This document shows positions 1,666 to 59,660 of a DNA stretch of 64,000 bases, piece by piece. Position 1 is the stretch's first letter, and each line of letters opens with the position of its first letter. Below the pieces are notes generated by a model. It saw nothing but the letters and a program-made list of their open reading frames with translations, did not search any database and had not been told where the DNA came from. Origin of the DNA: Escherichia coli (GTDB taxonomy: Bacteria > Pseudomonadota > Gammaproteobacteria > Enterobacterales > Enterobacteriaceae); assembly GCF_044324875.1 (NCBI RefSeq), contig NZ_CP172185.1; one strand, given 5' to 3'. The position numbers and the translations under genes were made by a program.

Positions 1666-3399
1666 TTACATACGCTCTACTGTCTCAATACCCAGCGTAT
1701 CCAGACCCAGTTTCAGCGTCTTCGCCGTCAGTTGTGCCAGTTTCAGACGGCTGTTACGCACTTCTTCGTTTTCTGCGCTGAGGATCGGGCAGTGCTCGTA
1801 GAAGCCAGAGAACAGACCAGCCAGATCGTACAGGTAAGCACACATCACATGCGGCGTGCCTTCACGGGCAACCACGGTGAGGGTTTCTTCAAACTGCAGC
1901 AGGCGAGCTGCCAGTTGCGCTTCACGATCTTCACGGATGATAACCGGAGCTGCAGCCAGTTGCTCTTCGTCAATTTCTGCTTTACGGAACACGGACAATA
2001 CACGCGTGTATGCATACTGCATGTATGGCGCGGTATTACCCTCAAACGCCAGCATGTTGTCCCAGTCGAAGATGTAGTCCGTGGTGCGGTTTTTGGAGAG
2101 ATCCGCATATTTCACCGCACCAATACCAACTGCGTTAGCCAGTTTTTCCAGCTCGTCGGCTGGCATATCCGGGTTCTTTTCTGCCACCAGACGACGTGCA
2201 CGCTCCAGGGCTTCATCCAGCAGATCGGCCAGTTTCACTGTACCACCCGCGCGGGTTTTGAACGGTTTGCCGTCTTTGCCCAGCATCATGCCGAACATGT
2301 GGTGTTCCAGCGGTACGGATTCCGGTACATAGCCTGCTTTACGGACGATAGCCCACGCCTGCATCAGGTGTTGATGCTGACGGGAGTCGATGTAATACAG
2401 CACGCGATCGGCATGCAGTGTTTCATAACGATATTTCGCACAGGCGATATCAGTGGTGGTGTAGAGATAGCCACCATCTTTCTTCTGAATGATCACGCCC
2501 ATCGGTTCGCCTTCCTTGTTTTTGAACTCATCAAGGAATACGACGGTCGCGCCTTCACTTTCTACTGCCAGACCTTTGGCTTTCAGGTCCGCCACGATAC
2601 CCGGCAGCATTGGGTTGTAGAGACTTTCACCCATGACGTCATCGCGGGTCAACGTCACGTTCAGACGATCGTAGGTGATCTGGTTCTGCGTCATGGTGAT
2701 GTCGACCAGTTTGCGCCACATCTCGCGGAAATATTCGTCACCGCTTTGCAGTTTGACTACGTAGTTACGTGCACGCTCGGCAAACTCTTCATCTTCGTCG
2801 TAATGCTTTTTCGCATCGCGGTAGAAACCTTCAAGGTCAGCCAGCTCCATTTCACCGGCGTTTTCTTGCTGCTGCTTTTCCAACCACGCAATCAGCATAC
2901 CGAACTGAGTACCCCAGTCGCCGACGTGGTTCGCGCGAATCACTTTGTGACCGAGGAACTCCAGAGTACGCACTGCCGCGTCACCAATAATGGTAGAGCG
3001 CAGGTGACCGACGTGCATCTCTTTCGCCACGTTCGGAGCGGAGTAGTCAACCACAATGGTCTGTTTTTCTGGCGTAGCAACACCGAGACGATCGGACGCC
3101 AGCGCCTGCTGAACATGATCAGCCAGGAAGGCTGGATCAAGAAAAATGTTGATAAAGCCTGGACCGGCGATCTCAACTTTGCTGGCGATACCGTTAAGAT
3201 CCAGATGAGTCAGCACCTGCTCTGCTAATTGTCGCGGTGCCATACCCAGTTTTTTAGCAACTGCCATCATGCCGTTAGCCTGATAGTCGCCGAACTGAAC
3301 TTTTGCTGACTGACGAACCTGCGGTTCGCAATCCGCAGGCGCGCCTGCCGCAATCATGGCCTGACGGACTTTTTCTGAGAGAAGAGCCTGAATATTCAC
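1666..3399 (-). CDS. argS: Arginine--tRNA ligase
   Basis: 577-aa ORF, translation [21 protein letters not shown]... with HVGH class-I motif; length matches ArgS. Confidence 0.95.
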
Positions 3400-3614
3400 C
3401 GGAATACCTTACATTGATGAAGCGAGCAAAAATTGCCCGCACCAGTTAAAGAAATTAGGGCGGGAGTATACTGCAAATGGCTGTTTTCGTCAGCAACGTG
3501 CGCGTGGCGTATTGCCGTTTTCACTATTGCATCAGAAGCGGCGTGAAATCAGCGGTTGGTTGGCGCAGGGCAACAGGGTAAATTAACGCTTTTACTGAAA
3601 GACGAAGAGTGATT

Positions 3615-4181
3615 ATGGCGAACTGGCAATCTATCGACGAGTTGCAGGATATTGCATCGGATTTACCGCGATTTACCCACGCATTAGATGAACTTTCCCG
3701 CCGTCTGGGGTTGGATATCACTCCGCTGACTGCCGATCACATTTCCTTGCGTTGCCATCAAAACGTCACCGCTGAACGCTGGCGTCGCGGGTTTGAACAG
3801 TGCGGCGAGCTTTTGTCAGAAAATATGATCAATGGCAGACCGATTTGTCTGTTTAAATTGCATGAACCGGTACAGGTTGCGCACTGGCAGTTTTCCATTG
3901 TGGAGCTACCGTGGCCCGGGGAAAAACGTTACCCGCACGAAGGTTGGGAACATATTGAAATCGTTCTGCCGGGCGATCCAGAAACGCTGAATGCCCGTGC
4001 GCTGGCATTGCTTTCTGATGAAGGACTCAGCCTGCCGGGGATCTCAGTTAAAACCAGTTCGCCAAAAGGTGAGCATGAGCGATTACCGAACCCGACGCTG
4101 GCGGTCACCGATGGCAAAACGACCATTAAATTTCATCCGTGGTCCATTGAAGAGATCGTTGCCAGCGAGCAGTCAGCGTAA
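3615..4181 (+). CDS. yecM: YecM, putative metal-binding enzyme
   Basis: ORF 3609..4181; ATG at 3615 chosen to give the remembered 188 aa; synteny argS-yecM-cutC. Confidence 0.8.
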   Translation: MANWQSIDELQDIASDLPRFTHALDELSRRLGLDITPLTADHISLRCHQNVTAERWRRGFEQCGELLSENMINGRPICLFKLHEPVQVAHWQFSIVELPWPGEKRYPHEGWEHIEIVLPGDPETLNARALALLSDEGLSLPGISVKTSSPKGEHERLPNPTLAVTDGKTTIKFHPWSIEEIVASEQSA

Positions 4182-4185
4182 TTAA

Positions 4186-4941
<756 letters not shown>

Positions 4942-57556: not shown

Positions 57557-57796
57557 TTAACCATTATCGACCACAATATTGCTTTTACGTAACAACGGGC
57601 AATCTGTTATCCCCAGAAAACCACTTTTAGTGTGCAGGTATTGTACCGTGCTGGTGCCTCTGGCGGTCAGATAGGTACATTGCAAACCTAATCCCGCGGC
57701 ATTCTCTTTGCTTCCAATCAAAACGCCATATCCGCTGAGTAATAATCCTATCCATACCAGTGCTATCAGCATAACTGTGCGAATGATGAATCGCAT
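57557..57796 (-). CDS. yobH: Small membrane protein YobH
   Basis: 79-aa ORF MRFIIRTVMLIALVWIGLLLSGYGVLIGS... Confidence 0.8.
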   Translation of the reverse strand: MRFIIRTVMLIALVWIGLLLSGYGVLIGSKENAAGLGLQCTYLTARGTSTVQYLHTKSGFLGITDCPLLRKSNIVVDNG

Positions 57797-58460: not shown

Positions 58461-59129
58461 TCCTTCCTCAATCTTGAGTAACCCCGTCGTTGAAGGGTTA
58501 CTCAATTCATCCTGATTATACGCACTGTCATGGTGCAACTGCTTCAAATTAAAACTCTGGTCTGACTTCAAATAATTATCATATTATTTATTTGCGTAAC
58601 GGGATATCAGAAAAAGATATTTAGCCCATTAATTTATTAGGATGTTTACATCGGATTTGTGATTAAGCGTGGTATTATTTATTAGCGAAACGTTTCTCTC
58701 TTGATTTTTTTGCGCATTTATCAATTTTTCTTATTTTAAATTTACAATACCTTTGGCGATTGACTTCTCTTTGGGGTGATCTATAGCCGTTAACTGACTG
58801 TTTTATGAGAAAAAGTGATATAACTTTTTATTCATTGCATAGCAGAAAATGTGATATTGCACGCACTATGTAATAACTTCTCCCACTGGCCTGGAACAAC
58901 TGAACTTATTGAACTATGTTAGAAAATACGTCAGTTTAAGTATCTGCCTGAACTGGCAAGGTTAAGCACAATGATATATCGGCGCGTATTCCGTTGCATA
59001 AGTGTGCAAAAAAAGTGGAAGACGTATCGAGATTTGTGCGTCTGATCGAGACATGTTTAAAAATGGCTTGCCATAATTAACGTTGTATGTGATAACAGAT
59101 TTCGGGTTAAACGAGGTACAGTTCTGTTT

Positions 59130-59273
59130 ATGTGTGGCATTTTCAGTAAAGAAGTCCTGAGTAAACACGTTGACGTTGAATACCGCTTCTCTGCCGAGCC
59201 TTATATTGGTGCCTCATGCAGTAATGTGTCAGTTTTATCTATGTTATGCCTGCGGGCGAAGAAAACAATCTAA
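59130..59273 (+). CDS. yobF: Small protein YobF
   Basis: Not in the ORF track; 47-aa [50 protein letters not shown] read from the sequence, immediately upstream of cspC. Confidence 0.8.
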
Positions 59274-59285
59274 GGAATTTTTCAA

Positions 59286-59495
59286 ATGGCAAAGATTAAA
59301 GGTCAGGTTAAGTGGTTCAACGAGTCTAAAGGTTTTGGCTTCATTACTCCGGCTGATGGCAGCAAAGACGTGTTCGTACACTTCTCTGCTATCCAGGGTA
59401 ATGGCTTCAAAACTCTGGCTGAAGGTCAGAACGTTGAGTTCGAAATTCAGGACGGTCAGAAAGGTCCGGCAGCTGTTAACGTAACAGCTATCTGA
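59286..59495 (+). CDS. cspC: Cold-shock-domain protein CspC
   Basis: 69-aa ORF with RNP motifs KGFGFI and VFVHF. Confidence 0.95.
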
Positions 59496-59541
59496 TCGAA
59501 TCCACTGATCTGAAGTGTGAATACGCTTCAATCTCGCTATA

Positions 59542-59568
59542 AAGCCTCGTCGAATGCGAGGCTTTTTA
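59542..59568 (+). terminator. Rho-independent terminator after cspC
   Basis: AAGCCTCG-TCGAATG-CGAGGCTT followed by a T-run. Confidence 0.55.
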
Positions 59569-59660
59569 CTTTGCTTTATCTTCGCTCCAGTCGTTCGGAT
59601 ATTTGCCCGCCGCGTGATTCGCGTTACACTTGCGGCCTTTAGTGTCCTGCCGGAGTTGTC

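Follow-up and report, generated by a model that had tools for sequence, protein, structure and literature searches.

The RNA chaperone CspC affects RpoS, PhoP-dependent virulence and the use of succinate, and the yobF-cspC operon is hit repeatedly by adaptive mutation (PMC13162491, PMC8599858, PMC10965054). Two promoters upstream of yobF, yobFp1 and yobFp2, are recorded in RegulonDB/EcoCyc and described as sigma70-type (cited in PMC13162491). The yebO-yobF spacer was named as an example of the 'type-B spacers' found by gSELEX, which are AT-rich, H-NS-associated and carry several RNA polymerase sites; more than two RpoD-holoenzyme peaks were located in 'the 670 bp spacer', which is flagged HNS in the published table (PMC3946193). 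The cspA thermoregulator (RF01766) controls a gene of the same family as cspC, and a Term-seq study has catalogued premature-termination and processing 3' ends in 5' UTRs (PMC7815308).

The yebO-yobF interval was analysed in a 64,000-nt stretch of Escherichia coli DNA (the window), where it is ordinary, largely known regulatory DNA and not a hidden gene. The gap extends from 58461 to 59129 (669 bp), just after the yebO stop (58460) and up to the yobF ATG (59130). It corresponds collinearly to K-12 MG1655 1907592-1908260, from which it differs by 11 SNPs and no indel. In 5423 of 5426 E. coli genomes it occurs once, and no RefSeq feature lies inside it in K-12 or in strain MEW, which is 100% identical. 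The sequence-only reading had described an AT-rich stretch upstream of yobF-cspC with no convincing ORF, and both parts of this description were borne out. The GC content was 35.4% for the entire gap and 34.6% for 58500-59129, compared with 50.3% for the window; the AT-richest 630-bp stretch of the window lies in the gap, and equally AT-rich 630-bp segments, which made up 0.06% of the total, all fell within the gap. The longest complete ORF on either strand was 31 aa, compared with 55 ± 16 aa in 500 shuffled sequences, 1% of which were equally ORF-poor.

Alignment of 72 Enterobacteriaceae loci from more than 20 genera, a comparison that the same reading had proposed, identified five conserved islands but no conserved small ORFs. 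The islands are near-fixed relative to the yobF ATG (-98, -134, about -222, about -300 and about -391 to -477) and are separated by unalignable spacers. The features of the interval are as follows.

58473 to 58509, + strand: yebO terminator hairpin and RNA 3' end (sequence, Term-seq)
58510 to 58650, strand not applicable: AT-rich spacer that aligns within Escherichia only
58657 to 58745, + strand: island 1, the distal module, with a candidate function only (alignments)
58826 to 58865, + strand: island 2, upstream of P2 (alignments, motif positions, CRP-pattern scan)
58892 to 58928, + strand: promoter P2, yobFp2 (published start site, promoter scan, conservation)
58928 to 59005, + strand: 5' part of the long leader, the implied RNA of about 78 nt (P2 start to Term-seq 3' end)
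58975 to 58980, + strand: -10-like TATATC, preceded by TG in E. coli (RpoS-holoenzyme peak, conservation)
58996 to 59008, + strand: island 4, GCATAAGTGTGCA (motif positions in 72 loci, alignments)
59032 to 59104, + strand: promoter P1, yobFp1, in island 5 (alignments, start-site mapping, promoter scans)
59104 to 59129, + strand: 26-nt yobF 5' UTR from P1, with the Shine-Dalgarno sequence GAGG at 59113-59116

P1 is the main yobF promoter and P2 is the second. P1 consists of TTGCCA (59068-59073), a 17-nt spacer and GATAAC (59091-59096), with an A/T tract upstream and a start at G 59104, and is overlapped by a GAGACA-18-CATAAT match. Its start site was mapped at v2 1905641 with 249 reads (PMC3415461) and is independently supported by tagRNA-seq start sites at 1907615-8 (PMC7075262) and by a SMRT-Cappable-seq unit from 1907617 to 1907153 (PMC6131387); TTGCCA-17-GATAAC is also listed by RpoD gSELEX (PMC3946193). 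P2 consists of TGGAAC (58892-58897), a 17-nt spacer and TATGTT (58915-58920, preceded by C), with a start at A 58928. Its published start is K-12 v2 1905817 (107 reads, 202-nt UTR; PMC3415461), and the 50 nt upstream of that start are identical in the window. Both promoters were within the top five + strand candidates of the PWM scan, and their -35/-10 hexamers, of the sigma70/sigmaS type, predicted starts near 59103 (P1) and 58927 (P2). Start sites 59104 and 58928 are yobFp1 and yobFp2, an assignment made via genome-wide start-site tables and not via database coordinates. The start-site data used cover few growth conditions, and no opposite-strand start sites were mapped in the gap in M9, exponential phase (PMC3415461).

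The leader sequence anticipated by the sequence-only reading is present in part, as the 202-nt 5' UTR of the P2 transcript, but the main transcript, from P1, has a 5' UTR of just 26 nt, which is the published pairing region of the small RNAs OxyS and CyaR (PMC10965054, PMC5861431). Transcription of yobF-cspC does not depend on a single promoter near 59100, because P2 is mapped at 58928; the roughly 470 bp upstream of both start sites (58461-58927) comprise the terminator, the spacer and conserved DNA modules. A cspA-like leader was not found in the interval. RF01766 does match this locus (139 bits, against a gathering score of 78), but unlike the cspA leader the match, at 59110-59570, covers yobF itself, the yobF-cspC spacer, and cspC with its terminator and not the AT-rich interval, where no above-threshold match lies and only the first 20 nt of the match overlap. 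The yobF ORF sits where a csp gene would be expected to have its long leader.

Downstream of yebO, a hairpin at 58473-58504 (GAGTAACCC...GGGTTACTC) is followed directly by AATTCATCC. This is not the GC-rich hairpin and U tract of an intrinsic terminator, and the consensus terminator scan made no call here because the U tract is absent. Term-seq located an RNA 3' end at 58509 (K-12 1908212/3) in all three conditions (PMC7815308), and SMRT-Cappable-seq reported a read-through unit, yebO-yobF-cspC (PMC6131387). The yebO terminator of the sequence-only reading is thus a hairpin with an observed 3' end, and it is leaky. In the adjoining spacer, 58510-58650, blastn coverage was restricted to 3 of the 72 loci, there were no conserved features or mapped start sites, and promoter-like hexamers occurred at chance level only. 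The AT richness of the yebO-yobF spacer as a whole would fit its published association with H-NS.

Island 1 contains a palindrome, AGCGAAACGTTTCTCT, at 58684-58699 and a promoter-like element composed of TTGCGC (58710-58715), a 16-nt spacer and TATTTT (58732-58737), a block that is invariant in Escherichia, Salmonella and Citrobacter. Of 73 sequences, 67 contained the core CGAAACGTTT, and in all but one locus it lay between -391 and -477 relative to the yobF ATG. The E. coli palindrome is identical to the K-12 rbsD operator GCGAAACGTTTCGC at 15 of 16 positions, as are those of Salmonella and Citrobacter, and the rbsD operator (AGCGAAACGTTTCGCT) is likewise a 16-bp palindrome with a central CG. 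That operator is presumably the site of the LacI-family repressor RbsR and resembles Cra and PurR boxes too. A full-text literature search by the palindrome sequence returned nothing relevant. The promoter-like element scores as high as P1 and P2 in the PWM scan. The published tables (PMC3415461, PMC6131387) give no start site for it, an observation that runs against viewing the interval as a composite control region.

The conserved block of island 2 is TTTAT.CATT..A.GCA.AAAA.GTGATAT. In E. coli it includes a CRP-like sequence, TGTGATATTGCACGCA (58850-58865), with two mismatches and a centre at -70.5 from P2. The majority of the 72 loci keep the P2 island itself, CTGG...TTGAgCTATGGTA, at -222 ± 2. 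Island 4 is a 13-mer, GCATAAnTGTGCA, located at exactly -134 from the yobF ATG in nearly all loci. A second copy of this 13-mer is carried by island 2 of other genera (at about -293 to -303, in at least 13 loci); in several genera the two copies are about 166 bp apart and bracket P2. The paralogue cspE has no such motif upstream. From a reading of the sequences, we rejected base pairing between the island-4 motif and the stretch that separates the Shine-Dalgarno sequence from the yobF ATG (ACAGUU): the middle base varies, which disrupts the pairing in E. coli as well as in other genera. We know of no convincing match between islands 2 and 4 and the consensus sequences of CytR, AraC/MarA-type regulators, DnaA, IHF, Fis or KdgR. 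Island 5 has the conserved sequence ATTTGTGCG.C.GATCGAGACA, including GATC at 59044-59047, with about 90% identity in all 72 loci, and its upstream half is centred at -61.5 from P1. The segment from P2 to island 4 is near-invariant in length, 76-81 nt in most loci, and its sequence is not conserved. Simple independent binding sites in a composite region do not explain this fixed length, which could reflect a constraint at the RNA level.

Published binding data for alternative sigma factors also fall in the interval. An RpoS gSELEX peak at v2 1905768 corresponds to window position 58977 (PMC5493296), and a sigmaS ChIP-seq region corresponds to 58961-59198 (PMC4447067). The TATATC element at 58975-58980, whose ATATA does not vary among Escherichia, Salmonella and Citrobacter, is a candidate for an additional promoter, with no mapped start site in published data. 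RpoN/NtrC binding by gSELEX, with repression, has been reported as well (PMC8743547). A canonical sigma54 promoter behind this binding was rejected, as no -24/-12 core (GG-N10-GC; TGGCAC-N5-TTGCA) was found at up to four mismatches on either strand of 58461-59200, and RpoN binding where such a core is absent does not fit easily with the composite view.

An RNA 3' end was reported at 59005 (K-12 1907716, score 264852) in LB at OD600 2.0 only, and was classed as 'orphan', 125 nt upstream of yobF (PMC7815308). This end falls inside the island-4 13-mer, with GCATAAGTGT before it and GCAAAAAAAG after it, and has the context G(-10), T(-1), G(+1). Such a context fits what we take to be the elemental pause site, G(-10), Y(-1), G(+1), of the NET-seq consensus. 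The signal at 59005 was about 9% of that of the cspC terminator and more than five times that of the yebO terminator in the same sample, and the RNA ending there is therefore not mainly yebO read-through (264852 versus 46490). The P2 start at 58928 and the 3' end at 59005 together imply a P2-derived RNA of about 78 nt. No terminator-like site was found near 59005 in the terminator scan. The fold energy of 58928-59005 was -15.8 kcal/mol (z = +0.25), and RNAalifold gave no consensus structure for the P2 leader (-1.1 kcal/mol, 6 pairs); a conserved secondary structure of this leader was not supported, the single-sequence z-scores being near zero. Because the end at 59005 has neither a terminator nor a conserved fold, attenuation or pausing at this site is likelier than a small RNA. 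The abundance of this end would also be consistent with a discrete RNA product that is stable, a further observation at odds with the composite view.

The sequence-only reading had suggested that the interval could hide a small RNA. An uncharacterised short species from P2 to 59005 is indeed implied, but it matches no Rfam family, and it is unlikely, although conceivable, that this stationary-phase RNA acts alone, either in trans as a small RNA or sponge or in cis as an attenuator with a dedicated signal. It would have a mapped start of its own, supported by a promoter motif, and a strong, condition-specific end 78 nt downstream, within a 13-mer whose distance from yobF is fixed, and its length is maintained across loci despite the unconserved sequence. 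A 5' hairpin is predicted at 58930-58957, where the SNP between the window and K-12 at 58931 preserves the pairing, and the first 38 nt of the leader fold better than shuffled sequences across loci (mean z -0.84, compared with -0.09 for the rest). The last 8 nt are predicted to be mostly unpaired (0.15-0.34), and on the small RNA reading this conserved single-stranded tail, AUAAnUGU, would be a functional element. On the other hand, the end lacks the hairpin and U tract of a Rho-independent terminator, the RNA as a whole folds no better than shuffled sequences, there is no consensus structure, and the pause-like context means that the end may belong to a paused or terminated leader, observed in one dataset under one condition. 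The body of the RNA is nearly unalignable between genera, unlike that of seed-bearing small RNAs. Searches with Rfam 15 found no family within the gap, either in the window (E up to 1) or in seven loci from six other genera (E up to 0.5); a known RNA family was rejected, the only matches being the downstream cspA model and a 15.6-bit psRNA2 chance match on the yebO hairpin. We propose only tentatively, and with doubt, that the 13-mer is a dedicated stationary-phase stop for P2 transcripts at 59005, which would make the RNA of about 78 nt an attenuator of CspC synthesis or a small RNA derived from the 5' UTR.

That the interval hides a small protein gene, the other product that had been suggested, is barely credible. 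Several ORFs of 20-31 aa are present in the gap, but the gap is ORF-poorer than chance and no ORF of at least 8 aa on either strand is intact in both Escherichia and other genera. A minus-strand ORF of 22 aa (58999-58931) is intact in four Escherichia lineages but has no Shine-Dalgarno sequence, encodes a freely divergent peptide, contains stops in Salmonella and Citrobacter, and lies on a strand with no mapped start site. Island 1 is spanned in many other genera by an open frame, M..(C/S)H(H/K)nFIILV(Q/H); in E. coli only 9 codons of this frame are left, its phase relative to the adjoining conserved block is not maintained, and it shows no codon periodicity (0.82/0.69/0.86), whereas the controls did (yebO 0.75/0.31/1.33, cspC 0/0/0.35). 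Its apparent (A/T/G)TG start is the TTG of a -35-like hexamer located 16-17 bp upstream of CATTAT. An origin of the interval as a scar left by gene loss or horizontal acquisition, either as a decayed metallo-beta-lactamase-fold remnant or as foreign AT-rich DNA, is also very unlikely. In 29 of the 72 loci a gene for a 331-aa Lactamase_B_2 protein lies between yebO and island 1, E. hormaechei has a weak C-terminal trace of it (E = 0.037), and 58510-58650 is alignable within Escherichia only. However, tblastn with this protein found nothing in the E. coli gap, which led us to reject such a remnant for E. coli, and about 520 bp upstream of yobF are present and conserved whether or not the Lactamase_B_2 gene is there. 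The gap has no homology to phages or true plasmids: the phage search gave zero matches, and the 'plasmid' matches were only four E. coli records of 0.42-4.9 Mb, which are taken to be mislabelled chromosomal sequence. A mobile-element origin was rejected on these negative searches and on the distribution of the gap, which is not patchy in the species. Little probability is likewise given to an antisense or divergent minus-strand transcript as the functional product. In vitro run-off microarrays gave a sigma70-preferred signal for an opposite-strand probe set, IG1905616_1906284-f, and for a probe antisense to cspC (PMC3141248), and there are promoter-like matches on the minus strand, such as TTGCCA-15-TAAACT at 58959-58933. 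The run-off assay, however, was done on naked DNA lacking H-NS, the spacer of the best minus-strand match is 15 bp long, and the in vivo datasets contain no minus-strand start sites or 3' ends in the gap (PMC3415461, PMC7815308, PMC6131387).

The most satisfactory account of the whole interval, in which we have good though not full confidence, is that it serves yobF-cspC as a composite, non-coding control region. It has its direct basis in composition, conservation, promoter motifs, the lack of a coding signal, and published start sites, 3' ends and polymerase binding. From 5' to 3', the region comprises the leaky yebO hairpin, a lineage-specific AT-rich spacer of about 140 bp, and five islands with freely diverging spacers between them; two of the islands are the mapped promoters P1 and P2. 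The remaining conserved elements are most likely protein-binding DNA: island 1 has a LacI-family-like palindrome adjoining a promoter-like element, islands 2 and 4 carry the repeated 13-mer flanking P2, and the upstream half of island 5 also belongs to this group. Since P1 and P2 are mapped and yebO is read through, yobF-cspC is transcribed from three sources. In stationary phase, a large share of the transcripts initiated upstream end at 59005, inside island 4, probably by pausing, premature termination or a roadblock, and this attenuation may limit read-through into P1.

As a conserved, modular, multi-input control region, these 670 bp should be left non-coding by annotators, and the analysis offers precise elements for mutation, namely P2, the 13-mer at -134, the distal CGAAACGTTT palindrome and the stop point at 59005. 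The practical gain is modest, because public datasets already contain most of this; the implied short leader RNA stands apart as uncharacterised.

In comparison with described systems, the locus shares with the Term-seq catalogue of leader 3' ends a condition-specific end located in a leader; 59005 is an 'orphan, upstream of ORF' entry that has no intrinsic terminator and was not followed up, and the Rho-dependence data of the catalogue cover other conditions (PMC7815308). The two promoters agree with the yobFp1 and yobFp2 database entries, which, as far as they are visible, do not describe islands 1, 2 and 4 or the end at 59005. The island-1 palindrome differs from the rbsD operator in its distance from the nearest mapped start site, which lies about 240 bp downstream, and in its right half-site, which diverges (TCGAAACGTTTTTCT) in most other genera, where just CGAAACGTTT is kept. 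Finally, in contrast to horizontally acquired targets of H-NS, the yebO-yobF spacer is mostly vertically conserved throughout the family, in discrete islands.

The window is E. coli chromosome with 100% identity to strain MEW, and the segment is found in 5423 of the 5426 complete E. coli genomes. Its gene order is kdgR, yobH, mgrB, yebO, gap, yobF, cspC and rlmA. The gap (58461-59129, 669 bp) aligns collinearly to K-12 MG1655 1907592-1908260, differing from it by 11 SNPs and no indel; a window position p can therefore be converted to K-12 (v3) as 1966721 - p, on the minus strand of K-12. The description of 58500-59129 as AT-rich and ORF-poor in the sequence-only reading was borne out: GC content is 34.6% there and 35.4% in the gap versus 50.3% in the window, and this region is the most AT-rich single 630-bp stretch of the 64 kb. 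The longest complete ORF in the gap on either strand has 31 aa versus a mean of 55 +/- 16 aa in shuffles, only 1% of which were as poor, so that the gap is ORF-poorer than its composition predicts; RefSeq annotates no feature within it. The gap is a real compositional feature, and it contains a modular and conserved regulatory region with multiple promoters.

Two yobF start sites were mapped by genome-wide 5' end profiling in exponential phase in M9-glucose, and the 50-nt upstream sequences printed for them match the window exactly (PMC3415461).

Mapped yobF start sites
59104 (v2 1905641), + strand: P1 start, 249 reads, 26-nt UTR (PMC3415461)
58928 (v2 1905817), + strand: P2 start, 107 reads, 202-nt UTR (PMC3415461)

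P1 is corroborated by tagRNA-seq (starts 1907615-8; PMC7075262) and by SMRT-Cappable-seq, in which a full-length unit spans 1907617-1907153 (PMC6131387). Part of the interval had been expected to be leader, which holds for the 202-nt UTR from P2 but for only 26 nt from P1, and the start at 58928 means that the promoter near 59100 is not the only one (PMC3415461). Under the same growth conditions, the position-sorted table of both strands contains no opposite-strand start inside the gap (PMC3415461). PMC13162491 uses the RegulonDB-derived names yobFp1, yobFp2 and cspCp8; three weak starts within yobF (59157, 59167 and 59174; 7-11 reads), assigned to cspC (PMC3415461), are probably the 'cspCp8' region.

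When the gap was scanned with a simple sigma70 PWM, both mapped promoters were within the top five + strand candidates by score, with predicted starts near 59103 for P1 (TTGCCA-17-GATAAC; observed 59104) and near 58927 for P2 (TGGAAC-17-TATGTT; observed 58928). No canonical sigma54 element was found in the gap. A C, which is a sigmaS-favoured feature in this position, directly precedes the P2 -10 hexamer (CTATGTT or CTATGGT). A conserved TATATC (58975-58980) coincides exactly with the RpoS-holoenzyme gSELEX peak at v2 1905768, window 58977 (PMC5493296), and a SigmaS ChIP-seq region corresponds to 58961-59198 (PMC4447067). Other published data place RpoN/NtrC binding near 59093, with repression of the operon under nitrogen limitation (PMC8743547), put more than two RpoD-holoenzyme gSELEX peaks in the spacer, with TTGCCA-17-GATAAC listed and an H-NS flag (PMC3946193), and report pairing of the OxyS and CyaR sRNAs near the yobF Shine-Dalgarno sequence (PMC10965054, PMC5861431).

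Conservation across Enterobacteriaceae, which the sequence-only reading had named as a check, was analyzed in 80 loci collected via YebO, in 72 of which the yebO-yobF interval could be defined. The interval is 441-706 bp (at least 588 bp in all but one locus) in Escherichia, Salmonella, Citrobacter, Klebsiella, Raoultella and some Enterobacter, and 1509-1581 bp in Lelliottia, Leclercia, Kosakonia, Phytobacter, Buttiauxella, Cedecea and other Enterobacter. The additional ~900 bp of the long class is a 331-aa Lactamase_B_2 gene (PF12706, metallo-beta-lactamase fold) immediately 3' of yebO, which separates yebO from the conserved block upstream of yobF; it lies at 3308-4303 of locus L010 and occurs in 28 other loci. 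Escherichia, Salmonella, Citrobacter and Klebsiella lack this gene, and two E. hormaechei loci (L074, L050) show a weak C-terminal trace of it. No trace of it was found in the E. coli gap, and an origin of the gap as a gene scar or as foreign DNA is unsupported. In both size classes, five conserved islands lie at near-fixed offsets from the ATG within ~520 bp 5' of yobF.

Conserved islands, numbered 5' to 3' toward the yobF ATG
58657-58745, island 1: mostly -391 to -477 from the ATG; CGAAACGTTT in 67 of 73 sequences, then near-invariant TTTCATTATTTTGGTGCA
~58826-58865, island 2: ~-300 from the ATG; second copy of the island-4 13-mer, in the same orientation, in at least 13 loci, degenerate in E. 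coli
58891-58927, island 3: P2, CTGG...TTGAgCTATGGTA; -10 hexamer at -222 +/- 2 from the ATG (-212 in Kosakonia and Phytobacter)
58996-59008, island 4: the 13-mer GCATAAnTGTGCA; exactly -134 in nearly all loci
59032-59129, island 5: -98 to -1 from the ATG; P1 and its 26-nt UTR, ~90% identity in 72 of 72 loci

Across genera, the sequences that separate the islands can hardly be aligned at all, and the distance from P2 to island 4 is constant within a few nt despite the unalignable sequence. The first ~140 bp past the yebO hairpin (58510-58650) can be aligned within Escherichia only. Eight of the 11 differences from K-12 cluster at 58714-58782, where the spacer separating island 1 from island 2 is not conserved, in agreement with the cross-genus conservation map. 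Within island 5, the block ATTTGTGCG.C.GATCGAGACA, centered at -61.5 relative to the P1 start, is retained in practically every one of the 72 loci; it holds a GATC (Dam) site at 59044-59047. The promoter-like element of island 1 (TTGCGC-16-TATTTT in E. coli, TTG...-16/17-CATTAT in other genera) scores equal to P1 and P2 and has no mapped start in published start-site data. Outside the gap, GCATAACTGTGCG at 57769-57781, within the yobH start and ~150 bp 5' of the mgrB start site, differs from the 13-mer at one position; this match is probably due to chance (2 such matches in the window versus 0.57 expected, with at least 2 in 12% of shuffles).

The suggestion that the interval might hide a small protein found no support, and judging from the reading frames the gap does not appear to contain such a gene. 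No ORF of at least 8 aa is intact in both other Escherichia species and other genera. Within Escherichia a single ORF persists (58999-58931 on the minus strand, 22 aa); it is without a Shine-Dalgarno sequence, encodes a freely diverging peptide, and is interrupted by stops in Salmonella and Citrobacter; its strand has no mapped start site. An open frame of island 1 in other genera (M..HHnFIILVQ) was rejected as well: it has no codon periodicity (0.82/0.69/0.86, with positive controls of 0.75/0.31/1.33 for yebO and 0/0/0.35 for cspC), is not preserved relative to the adjacent conserved block, and is cut to 9 codons in E. coli, and the TTG at which it would 'start' belongs to the -35-like hexamer.

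A hidden small RNA had also been proposed. A Term-seq 3' end at K-12 1907716, window 59005, was detected only in LB at OD600 2.0, with a score of 264852; in that sample the cspC terminator scored 3055420 and the yebO terminator 46490. The paper classes this end as 'orphan, 125 nt upstream of yobF' without discussing it (PMC7815308). Another end at 59242 (K-12 1907479), inside yobF and 44 nt upstream of cspC, was detected in LB at OD 0.4 and in M63 and not at OD 2.0, and the two ends are thus reciprocal (PMC7815308). As the signal at 59005 is more than five times that of the yebO terminator, its main source must be a promoter within the gap; P2 is the sole mapped candidate source, which would imply an RNA of ~78 nt. 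To this extent the proposal stands, but Rfam gave no match in the gap of E. coli or in seven loci of six other genera, and it is unlikely that the RNA from P2 to 59005 is a free-standing sRNA. Three weaker signals do point to such an sRNA: the folding of its first 38 nt, which is better than that of shuffles in 58 loci (mean z -0.84, versus -0.09 for the remainder), its conserved last 8 nt, predicted to be mostly unpaired, and the SNP at 58931 between the window and K-12, which leaves a base pair of the predicted 5' hairpin intact. However, the RNA has no intrinsic terminator, does not as a whole fold better than shuffles (z +0.25), and yields no consensus structure from 21 sequences (-1.1 kcal/mol). 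Around 59005 the bases are G (-10), T (-1) and G (+1), which match the consensus for an elemental pause. Because of these features, we favor pausing, premature termination or a roadblock, encountered before P1 by transcripts initiated upstream.

The yebO hairpin (58473-58504) is without a U tract and was missed by a consensus terminator scan; a Term-seq 3' end lies just past it at 58509 (PMC7815308). SMRT-Cappable-seq identified a yebO-yobF-cspC unit from the yebO start site (58154), and likewise an mgrB-yebO unit (PMC6131387). Therefore, the yebO hairpin leaks and the entire gap is transcribed at some level, and PhoP-activated mgrB-yebO transcription could feed into cspC. Transcription of the opposite (minus) strand of the gap is suggested only by an in vitro run-off array signal (PMC3141248); in vivo, the published start-site and 3'-end datasets compared contain nothing that corresponds to it.

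Downstream of the gap, yobF (59130-59273) displays no relaxation of third codon positions, unlike yebO and cspC (entropy 0.33/0.28/0.31 in 33 distinct Enterobacteriaceae sequences), and the YobF C-terminus is variable, with tblastn matches limited to aa 1-37/39 in many genera. Conservation of the yobF ORF seems to concern chiefly the nucleic acid, i.e. its role as the cspC leader, although production of the YobF protein has been shown in published work.

Comparison with known systems concerns both the leader and island 1. Unlike what would be expected of a leader located in the gap, the Rfam cspA thermoregulator (leader) model aligns at 59110-59570, spanning yobF and extending over cspC. The palindrome AGCGAAACGTTTCTCT of island 1 (58684-58699), invariant in E. 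coli, Salmonella and Citrobacter, agrees with the K-12 rbsD operator region sequence tcaGCGAAACGTTTCGCtga, the RbsR operator, at 15 of 16 positions. The right half diverges in most other genera (TCGAAACGTTTTTCT), and therefore only CGAAACGTTT is family-wide; by its sequence, the palindrome may be a LacI-type operator. P1, P2, the multiple polymerase sites, the H-NS flag and sRNA pairing at the UTR, the main elements of the region, are already found in public databases and papers. Four features have not been described before: islands arranged alike and at fixed spacing throughout the family; the 13-mer repeated on either side of P2; the distal module with CGAAACGTTT; and the stationary-phase 3' end that coincides with the -134 element. 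They are modest leads and do not amount to a novel type of system.
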